Source: a virus
Virus genome (UHGV): UHGV-0180316
DNA length: 38,696 nt
Strand: one strand, 5' to 3'
Shown here: piece by piece, positions 36,014-36,843 of the stretch
How the letters are laid out: each line of letters starts with the position of its first letter
How positions within the stretch are numbered: position 1 is the first letter of the stretch
Program-made: the position numbers and the translations under genes
Notes under the pieces: generated by a model
Told to the model about the DNA's origin: nothing
The model's input: only the letters and a program-made list of their open reading frames with translations
Database searches by the model: none

Positions 36014-36843
36014 ATTTTCCTGCCCGGAGTGGCCGCACGTAAGGGAACGCGGGAGGCCGGATGTGGCCTCCCTGCAAGAAATTTCCCGGGTGGTCCGGGA
36101 AAGCGCCGGTGAGGGGGCAACCTCCACCTCACGGCGCAGGCATCGGCAGGGGAACAGGTTTTTCACATGTTCCCTGCTCCCCTGCCAAAATTTTCAAGAT
36201 TTCCCGCTACAAGGCGGGAGCCATGCGGTTCCTCCCGCACATGGACCAAGGGCCGGGACCCTACATCCCGGCCCCACCAAAAGAGGACGATGGAGACAAA
36301 TTTCCTGTTCCGGAGTGGCCGGAGCAGGGCGCGGTACGCCGAAAGCCGCGCTAGGGAACGCGGGGGCCGGAGCCGTCACGAGAAGAGATTGCCCGGCCCC
36401 CTCAAGGAGAAAAAATATGTATCGCGTGATTATATACGGATGCCCGGACAAGTTCTCCGTGGCAGTGCACGGGAAAGAGTTCAATCGCCGCGGGCTTATC
36501 AGGTTCCTTTCCCGCCATGCGAACAAGCTTGTGGGCTGCGAAGATGTAACCGTGAAGCACGGGGACGGCCCCGAGTGCTCCGTCAATTTCTTTTATGTCG
36601 GGGAAAAGCGCATGAGCGATCGGATCCCGACTCATCGAATTATCCACCTGAAATAGGCGGACCCATGCGGTTCCTCCCGCACACTGGACTAGGCGGGGCC
36701 GGGTCATCTGCACAGCCTGGCTCCGCCGAGCAGGAGGAACGAAGACAGATTTCCCGCCCGGAGTGGCCGGAGCGGGGCGCGGTAGGAAATGGCCGCGTTA
36801 GGGAACGCGGGAGACCTGGAGACTCCACAGCTTCAGGTCTCCC
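36014..36843 (+). repeat. array of long GC-rich structured repeats: partial copy R1 (36014-36072), unit A (36213-36400) and unit B (36656-36843), plus extra hairpins at 36082-36190
   Basis: Units A and B are both about 188 bp. They share ATGCGGTTCCTCCCGCACA, TTTCC.G..CGGAGTGGCCGGAGC.GGGCGCGGTA and AGGGAACGCGGG. Each ends in a hairpin of different sequence but the same shape: GGGAGGCC/GGCCTCCC, GGGGCCGG/CCGGCCCC, GGGAGACCTG/CAGGTCTCCC. Confidence 0.55.
36417..36656 (+). CDS. hypothetical small protein between repeat units A and B
   Basis: 80-aa ORF MYRVIIYGCPDKFSVAVHGKEF... with AAGGAG RBS; real sub-ORF of the longer frame that runs through the repeats. Confidence 0.4.
   Translation: MYRVIIYGCPDKFSVAVHGKEFNRRGLIRFLSRHANKLVGCEDVTVKHGDGPECSVNFFYVGEKRMSDRIPTHRIIHLK

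Follow-up and report, generated by a model that had tools for sequence, protein, structure and literature searches.

The RNase III hairpins of the T7 early region and the hairpin stabilizers of lambda pL are intercistronic and sense-oriented, are more conserved in structure than in sequence, and cap mRNA segments after cutting, while REP/BIME elements, imperfect palindromes rich in GC, lie between cistrons or at 3' positions and are able to stabilize upstream mRNA and to promote rearrangements. The start-associated sequences (SAS) and extended SAS (ESAS) of the Cluster K mycobacteriophages are short and well conserved, occur in one orientation in the non-structural half of the genome just 5' of the starts of different gene families, and often have an inverted repeat with a variable spacer on their 5' side; they are suspected of acting in translation or of binding a factor (PMC3203893). 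The put RNA of phage HK022, ~70 nt long with two bulged stem-loops, acts in cis on the zinc-binding domain of the RNA polymerase β' subunit without protein factors, and putR lies ~270 nt downstream of PR (PMC9378689). Here we describe X and Y, two structured non-coding cassettes not catalogued before, in the virus genome UHGV-0180316, the whole of which (38,696 nt) was analyzed and is hereafter called the window. The pair is real and statistically supported and, together with accessory hairpins, is specific to a lineage of temperate human-gut phages. All cassette copies in the window are confined to 36014–36844, on the + strand, in the first part of a lambda-like early operon.

A first-pass annotation of the window had described two copies of a 188-bp element, units A and B, each placed 5' of a gene. 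The repeats lie where it had put them, with exact shared blocks of 19 to 27 nt: ATGCGGTTCCTCCCGCACA occurs exactly twice in the 38.7 kb, at 36223 and 36665 (0 of 100 shuffles), and CCGGAGTGGCCG and AGGGAACGCGGG occur exactly three times each, all within 36014–36811. In addition, both unit A with its flanks and unit B with its flanks contain rows of GC-rich hairpins, with z = −5.26 for each in 200 dinucleotide shuffles. The natural unit, however, is not the 188-bp element. We compared ~70 related loci (designated by L and a number), mostly from human-gut metagenomes, which were collected by pattern scans of viral contigs, by a look-up of the 80-aa protein encoded between the two units and by a metagenome scan with an alignment of the 77-aa protein encoded upstream of them. 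In these loci X and Y occur apart, and each 188-bp unit is a fusion of the two.

Cassette X consists, from 5' to 3', of a variable hairpin (H0) that ends 2–4 nt before an invariant block, CAUGCGGUU(U)CCUCCCGCA, followed by a GGACnAGG linker, a variable GC hairpin (H1), an A-rich tract, a Shine-Dalgarno (SD) sequence and the AUG. The SD lies 8–25 nt past H1 in every X, although in the fused units it is just a remnant. The block is located 63–80 nt 5' of the start codon, and the genes that follow come from at least eight unrelated families, among them PD-(D/E)XK nucleases of two kinds and DUF7173-like proteins of 130–136 aa. Cassette Y begins with (A)AAUUUCC, which leads into hairpin H2, CCCGCCCGG AGUGG CCGGAGCGGGG, with a conserved 5-nt loop (AGUGG or AUUGG). 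Directly abutting H2 is H3, in which GCGCGG and CCGCGC enclose a purine-rich loop of 9–13 nt ending in GAAAG; the linker UAAGGGAAC and a variable GC hairpin (H4) complete the cassette. Y starts 1–11 nt 3' of the stop codon of the upstream gene, be it the 77-aa gene or a 98-aa gene. The idea that each unit is the leader of the next gene is therefore half right: it holds for X, which is start-associated, and fails for Y, which is stop-associated. Both cassettes keep to one strand. In a regular-expression census, which is biased towards conserved copies, all 69 X hits and all 57 Y hits in X/Y context are on the gene-sense strand, as is every strong hit of a covariance model (CM).

The cassettes have a mosaic distribution. 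Each genome has a single such region, in which each cassette is present once or twice, and most relatives have one Y and one X around a slot that holds 0–2 interchangeable small genes, sometimes with extra hairpins (Z1–Z3, described below, and others); the maximum, in L055, is up to ten hairpins in 600 nt. A single cassette can also fill the spacer, as does Y in L031 and L133 and X in L130, and the early genes that come later in the operon are closely packed, with no spacers of this kind (L061). Many of the hairpins share a TTCC...GGAA foot, and their loops range from 4 to 40 nt.

Comparison across the homologous loci, which the first-pass annotation had proposed as a check, shows that the stems covary at the population level. 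A CM of the Y core gave 41 strong hits; in their alignment, which is fitted to the model and hence leans towards structure, pairing holds in 90.6% of cells, and both partners have changed in 8 of 16 pairs. Of 500 column shuffles, none attains the observed value in any of five measures, and when the partners are slid by 1–3 columns pairing falls to 24–55%. At the positions of the variable hairpins we find at least nine unrelated stem sequences for H0, at least seven for H1 and at least seven for H4, and 27 of 33, 32 of 35 and 34 of 35 unique variants, respectively, exceed at least 95 of 100 shuffles in stability. The H1 alleles are not alignable by sequence (MAFFT/RNAalifold), and because of this lack of alignability the case for H0, H1 and H4 is made by these per-variant shuffle tests rather than by formal covariation counts. 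Within alleles there are also single-step compensations, for example GGGGCCGGGA/UCCCGGCCCC versus GGGGUCGGGA/UCCCGACCCC. The RNA fold of the + strand is favored for the Y core (p = 1.7e-5) and for H4 (p = 2e-3). For X, folding energy is not decisive as to strand, H0 alone and H1 alone showing no significant preference.

The primary sequence is constrained as well. For the X block, mean pairwise identity reaches 0.997, and for the top of H2 0.93, compared with 0.59 for third codon positions of the adjacent 77-aa gene, the cassette values being biased upward by the regular-expression collection. This constraint is not that of a coding sequence. A leader peptide or upstream ORF (uORF) beginning MRFLPH, a start shared by both units in the window, was considered and rejected, there being no conserved frame or length across loci: a 1-nt indel after codon 3 of the MRFLPH frame separates 17-nt from 18-nt blocks, the uORFs run from 11–24 codons to open-ended, and the Y cores are 56–62 nt long, lengths that are not multiples of three. 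Together these features exclude coding, and the MRFLPH ATG does not belong to a conserved ORF; the proposal that selection acts on structure rather than on coding is thus borne out by the compensatory changes in the Y core and by the stability of H0, H1 and H4. A small ORF on the minus strand was also examined by eye, since the complement of the block gives a perfect SD and ATG, yet the peptides are 5–14 aa or longer and are not conserved.

How the 188-bp units arose can be read from their junctions. In unit A, the X copy comprises H0 (36201–36220), the invariant block AUGCGGUUCCUCCCGCACA (36223–36241), which could form a 5-bp stem UGCGG/CCGCA with a UUCCUC loop, and H1 of the GGGCCGGGA/UCCCGGCCC allele (36250–36274). 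The Y copy consists of a core at 36302–36359 (H2 36304–36328, H3 36329–36351 and the linker UAGGGAAC; CM score 78.4 bits) and an H4 of the GGGGGCCGG/CCGGCCCCC allele with a conserved 22-nt loop (36362–36401), after which come the SD AAGGAG (36404–36409) and the ATG of the 80-aa gene at 36417. Between the two, at 36282–36299, lie what appear from comparison with L100 and L103 to be a remnant SD, an ATG and two or three codons of a deleted gene, which resemble the start of the 130-aa 'MENLEN' gene of relatives. Unit B is built in the same order, with H0 at 36643–36661, its 3' arm including the TAG stop of the 80-aa gene, the invariant block at 36665–36683, H1 at 36692–36727, a Y core at 36750–36806 (H2 36753–36777, H3 36777–36798 and again UAGGGAAC; 72.1 bits) and an H4 of the CGGGAGACCUGGAG/CUUCAGGUCUCCCG allele at 36808–36844. 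Its H1 has 13 bp of which three are G-U, so that the hairpins, which had been called perfect, are real without all being perfect. The junction of unit B (36730–36749) seems to combine a remnant SD, GCAGGAGGAAC, with the remnant 3' end of a gene, ACAGAUUUC, which resembles the 3' end of the 77-aa gene. In both units the remnants are followed by AAAUUUCC, the start of Y.

Fusions of X to Y with such a remnant SD or ATG are found in three different phages (the window, L099 and L103) and probably arose by deletion of the intervening gene or genes, an event that, having taken place twice in the window, would have produced the 188-bp units. The differences between units A and B are not the product of duplication followed by compensatory drift in place, as had been supposed, because they are pre-existing alleles of H0, H1 and H4 that circulate in other phages. 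Indeed, H1 of unit A is also present in L099, L100, L103, L127 and L153, and H1 of unit B in L099. A third partial copy, R1, was correctly recognized as a copy, although of Y rather than of the 188-bp unit. R1 (36014–36048) starts 3 nt past the TAA of the 77-aa gene and keeps UUUUCC, the 5' arm and loop of H2, and CACGUAAGGGAAC; the 3' arm of H2 and most of H3 were lost in an internal deletion between two GGCCG repeats, and R1 scores just 20 bits with the CM. Its H4, of the GGGAGGCC/GGCCUCCC allele, lies at 36049–36075, and intact versions of the R1 allele occur in L055 and L112. In L102 (2756–2798), the flanks of Y are normal but enclose H2 as an exact reverse complement, CCCGCTCCGG CCAAT CCGGGGCGGG, with H3 mostly deleted, which we read from the sequence as an in-place inversion mediated by the palindrome. 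From the fusions, the deletion in R1 and the inversion of H2 it is evident that the cassettes are used as recombination joints, and the near identity of cassettes beside unrelated genes, in a phage that encodes Exo and RecT, argues that they would serve as homology joints for gene exchange and deletion.

Between R1 and unit A lie three further hairpins, which had also been noticed in the first pass and which are real (36082–36186). Z1, UUUCCCGG GUGGU CCGGGAAA (36082–36102), covaries in relatives, as do the stems of Z3 (36145–36186), which has a conserved GUUUUUCACA loop; Z2, GCGCCGGUGAGG...CCUCACGGCGC, is located between them at 36103–36137. Read on the minus strand, Z1 (UUUCCCGG ACCAC CCGGGAAA, then UUUCUUGCAG) scores as a terminator, and in that direction it could stop antisense transcription entering the early-promoter region. 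On the + strand, the earlier conclusion that the hairpins are not simple terminators holds for the window: no hairpin in 36000–36880 has an immediate U-tract, which excludes an intrinsic terminator there. Since the same phage has canonical U-tract terminators at 35348–35398 and 3909–3937, the GC hairpins are not its usual terminators. Among the relatives, two H4 alleles carry UUUU and two other hairpins, in L108 and L144, carry U-tracts. The latter are canonical terminators (GGCGGCGGC...GCCGCC, then UUUUU) situated in the slot before the SD of the next gene (L108, ~980–1010; L144, ~1040–1085), and thus the slot sometimes holds real termination signals.

Comparison with known families returned no match. 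Searching Rfam 15 (including riboswitches, C4, CRISPR-DR, PrrB/RsmZ and ribozymes) with the whole window at gathering thresholds gave 0 hits, and at E ≤ 10 the best scores in 35950–36900 were 19–21 bits against thresholds of 44–50, on the wrong strand; the X and Y cassettes are therefore absent from Rfam. The closest behavior in the literature is that of SAS and ESAS (PMC3203893), and the likeness is in behavior alone. SAS is a 13-bp motif, GGGATAGGAGCCC, that overlaps the SD a few bases before the start and is present in 11–19 copies per genome. In contrast, the invariant block of X lies 63–80 nt upstream in one or two copies per genome, is accompanied by a second, stop-associated cassette and is flanked by covarying stems. 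The SAS motif has no match in the window at ≤2 mismatches, and its 3-mismatch matches are below chance expectation. Like the T7 RNase III sites and the lambda pL stabilizers, X and Y appear to be paralogous structured elements between early cistrons on the sense strand. However, a T7 site is one long, irregular hairpin spanning about two helical turns, whereas the cassettes have three short stems (8–14 bp) with invariant loops and linkers. They may likewise be compared with REP/BIME as GC-rich imperfect palindromes in intercistronic or 3' positions, but REPs number hundreds of copies per host chromosome and the cassettes are confined to one spot in the phage genome. A search of 185,579 species genomes (596 Gb) with the X-block pattern gave 29 hits, about the rough chance expectation for 18 specified bases, and one of these is a related, phage-like contig of 2.1 kb; with matches at about chance level, REP/BIME or any other host-genome repeat family was rejected. 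We also rejected a CRISPR-repeat mimic (RNA anti-CRISPR), there being no CRISPR-DR hit and the loops being too large, and a CsrA sponge, as GGA motifs are not consistently in loops. Readings of the H0 loop (GGCAC) and the block as sigma-54 or ops-like sites were dropped after inspection by eye, the key −12 and ops positions being mismatched.

We favor, at a probability of roughly 45%, a reading in which X and Y are portable intercistronic cis-acting RNA cassettes, concerned with processing or stability or bound by a factor, that double as recombination joints. This RNA punctuation is preferred because it fits all the position rules. The cassettes would be the untranslated stretches that join the first cistrons of an early operon of the lambda-pL type, would be transcribed within that operon and would act in cis on the polycistronic early transcript, during or after transcription. 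Y would cap the 3' side of the upstream cistron and X the 5' side of the next, and the stable GC hairpins with their A/U-rich spacers (AAAUUU) would divide the mRNA into segments capped by hairpins, a division that may set the stability and relative expression of whichever gene occupies the slot. The invariance of the loops and linkers suggests a binding partner, and the sequences in question (UUCCUC, AGUGG and UAAGGGAAC) could be recognized by a factor of the host or the phage that acts in trans. The cassettes could also supply homology for gene-cassette exchange and deletion, the phage having its own Exo and RecT. If this reading is correct, portable junctions of self-folding RNA would let any accessory gene enter the early operon and stay expressed, and the same modules would provide the homology for swapping such genes, which are probably anti-defense or host-takeover genes. 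X and Y are, moreover, two well-defined structured RNA motifs of human-gut phages that are new to Rfam, and their invariant loops imply that something binds them.

Several points weigh against this reading. That the cassettes act as RNA is itself something we infer, and the X block taken with H1 has a slightly more favorable fold on the minus strand. The mini-stem within that block (UGCGG/CCGCA around a UUCCUC loop) is invariant save for one G-U and is unproven because its sequence never varies, and the high identity of the cassettes could come in part from recent recombinational spread and not from purifying selection. As to processing, the stems of 8–14 bp are short for RNase III, and the sole footing of RNase E is that the AAAUUU spacers fit what we take to be its general motif. 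At equilibrium folding, finally, the accessibility of the SD and AUG downstream of X is 0.607 with the native sequence versus 0.597 with shuffled sequences (p = 0.095), and because predicted accessibility is unaffected by X, a simple translational role for it is unsupported.

Alternative explanations at the RNA level must be weighed against these cis-acting junctions. H2 and H3 of Y might be a processive antitermination RNA (put-like) or a protein-loading site (nut-like) that modifies RNA polymerase for read-through into the recombination and integration genes; the put-like role is one of those suggested in the first pass. The Y core is made up of two abutting stem-loops (52–58 nt), lies ~560 nt 3' of the predicted early promoter, past the first small genes, a placement reminiscent of putR relative to PR, and belongs to an operon laid out like lambda pL, where antitermination is needed. 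Like HK022 put, Y provides an early-operon cis candidate with two adjacent stem-loops of similar total size and two paralogous copies per genome (PMC9378689). Put sits between an early promoter and the terminators it suppresses; the cassettes lie downstream of a promoter-like site, and past them the first + strand terminator of the window is the one after int, at 3909. Put has one copy per divergent operon, whereas the copies here share one operon, and Y comes right behind a stop codon with a third hairpin on its 3' side. Terminators in the spacer are absent from most relatives; about 9 of 59 distinct ones have a U-tract on the hairpin right after H2–H3 or on a later one in the spacer. In a one-way test, the Y model run on the nun-cI-cro region of HK022 (27600–30100) gave a best score of 5.2 bits (E = 0.87), so there is no model match and the put region is dissimilar. 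Furthermore, Y is duplicated in some phages and absent from others, X alone filling the spacer in L130. For a nut-like site, the upstream 77-aa protein with its invariant arginine-rich RTRRERI motif is, judging by its sequence, a lead as an N-type counterpart. Against this, the protein has a C-terminal transmembrane-like helix, L055 and L155 keep X and Y without the arginine-rich segment, no boxA-like sequence (CGCUCUUA-like) is found on the + strand in 35450–36900, and the loops of H2 and H3 do not resemble that of boxB, the short hairpin with a GNRA-like pentaloop that follows boxA in a lambda-type nut site, which lies upstream of terminators and goes with an N-type protein. On balance antitermination lacks positive support and we consider it unlikely. 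An alternative centered on X is that its pyrimidine loop UUCCUC(C) pairs as an anti-Shine-Dalgarno with the downstream SD or is the operator of a translational repressor. X is always accompanied by an SD after H1, even (as a remnant) in the fused units, its position is fixed at 63–80 nt before the starts of unrelated genes, in which it resembles the Cluster K SAS, GGGAGGAACCGCAUG, a model initiation region, is matched exactly by the block in antisense, and in unit B and L130 the minimum-energy fold pairs GGUUCCUCC with GGAGGAAC or GGAGGAU. However, the unpaired probability of the SD-AUG window is equal with native or shuffled X, which led us to reject sequestration of the SD or insulation of the translation initiation region by X; in most relatives the block folds on itself and leaves the SD free, and the downstream SD regions are complementary to the block through a generic GGAG at most. 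Translational control of this kind is accordingly doubtful.

The remaining alternatives concern DNA, a small RNA (sRNA) acting in trans, and chance. Were the primary function at the DNA level, the cassettes would be linkers for recombination joints, or hairpin or cruciform sites for a DNA-binding protein, with RNA structure incidental. Gene-sized deletions that fuse X to Y, the GGCCG deletion of R1, the inverted H2 of L102, the occurrence of the same cassettes beside unrelated genes, the TTCC...GGAA foot common to many hairpins and the phage's own Exo and RecT all fit this possibility. Recombination linkers need identity, however, and have no use for compensation within stems or for hairpins that differ wholly in sequence yet keep their positions, and loops of 4–40 nt are ill-suited to dimeric DNA operators, while the strict single orientation and tight spacing to stop and start codons point to a transcript and the G-U-dependent + strand preference of Y supports RNA; we hold a primarily DNA-level role to be rather improbable. 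Prophage early operons do yield processed sRNAs, such as DicF from the dicB operon, and X, with a 19-nt invariant block, an exposed C/U-rich loop and a stable hairpin on either side, might similarly be processed from the operon transcript into an sRNA whose loop targets SD regions of host or phage mRNAs, as DicF or sRNAs with C-rich loops do. But X has neither its own promoter nor a U-tract terminator, which makes the independent small-RNA gene considered in the first pass unlikely. In addition, the phage contains no second complementary site, and exact matches in the 185,579 species genomes do not exceed chance, the one phage-like contig aside, so that little weight can be given to this explanation. 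The view that the units reflect recent local duplication and neutral drift, their hairpins being a chance product of GC-rich DNA, could appeal to the two copies lying 442–448 bp apart in a genome of 57.8% G+C, and is refuted by the comparative data: the cassettes are kept across ~70 loci from many samples, alleles are common to different phages, and folding z-scores and covariation are well beyond controls. This scenario, with stems not preferentially preserved, had been named in the first pass as the one that would overturn selection on structure, and we regard it as next to impossible. A bolder proposal would be a new class of phage regulatory RNA, as opposed to passive punctuation of the mRNA, either with Y (H2–H3 and UAAGGGAAC) binding RNA polymerase or the 77-aa protein to control elongation into the recombination module, or with X as a trans-acting anti-Shine-Dalgarno sRNA or decoy; this, too, we deem a long shot although a live one.

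The window is a complete temperate phage genome without tRNA genes. It is circularly permuted, as the alignment of a relative runs straight across the window ends. The + strand encodes, in order, an S24/HTH repressor (34061–34756), a low-GC multi-pass membrane protein (34760–35338), two tandem U-tract terminators (35348–35398), a promoter-like site TTGCTA-18-TGnTATCAT (35423–35452, a match to consensus alone), the 93-, 77- and 80-aa genes, exo, RecT and further genes, the integrase (2754–3740) and a strong U-tract terminator after it (3909–3937). This arm, from repressor to integrase, shares its gene order with the cI-rex-timm-pL-...-exo-bet-int-terminator arm of lambda. The early operon carrying the cassettes is probably transcribed from the promoter-like site, and the hairpin region lies 550–1400 nt into it. 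The 5' untranslated region of the first early gene (35464–35490) folds as GGGAACC GUAAGGA GGUUCCC, its SD occupying loop and 3' arm right before the AUG; this GGGAAC...GUUCCC hairpin (35465–35485) was rejected as a fourth copy of the motif and is taken as chance because it is found in the window and L099 alone. The first gene 3' of unit B encodes a PD-(D/E)XK exonuclease (36880–37680). The longest ORF for RecT overlaps it by 74 nt (37607–37684), and gene calls on identical contigs place the RecT start at the equivalent of window position 37685 (330 aa), leaving a 4-nt gap.

The 77-aa gene (35778–36011, with its TAA stop at 36009–36011) encodes a protein kept in all related loci, in which the RTRRERI motif is followed by a hydrophobic, transmembrane-like C terminus that gives it a tail-anchored look. 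In L055 and L155, it is an internal deletion that takes out the arginine-rich part. The slot between Y and X is occupied in the window by the 80-aa gene (79/80 aa; 36417–36656, + strand), whose product has no Pfam family past the curated threshold and no PHROG match. Different phages have different genes of 73–87 aa in this slot (L060, 476–697; L148, 3794–4045; L110, 562–789), and those of L060 and L148 likewise have no Pfam family past the curated threshold. This hypervariable position might hold anti-defense or host-takeover genes.

A blastn search of the region against GenBank phages found no match, and the nearest RecT proteins, from proteobacterial and other phages, are <51% identical; by these comparisons the lineage has no close isolate phage. 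The related 2.1-kb contig found in the species genomes, a true relative, is binned to a rumen Desulfovibrio metagenome-assembled genome and hints that the host may belong to the Desulfovibrionaceae, an assignment that is uncertain because this contig is its whole basis. The minus strand from ~4.2 to 33.8 kb encodes, along with many unassigned ORFs, a DNA methyltransferase, a lysozyme-like protein, the large terminase, the portal and a VgrG3-like spike protein. The methyltransferase is of the D12 class of N6-adenine enzymes (27976–28833), and the VgrG3-like domain forms the C terminus of the protein encoded at 10680–12581.

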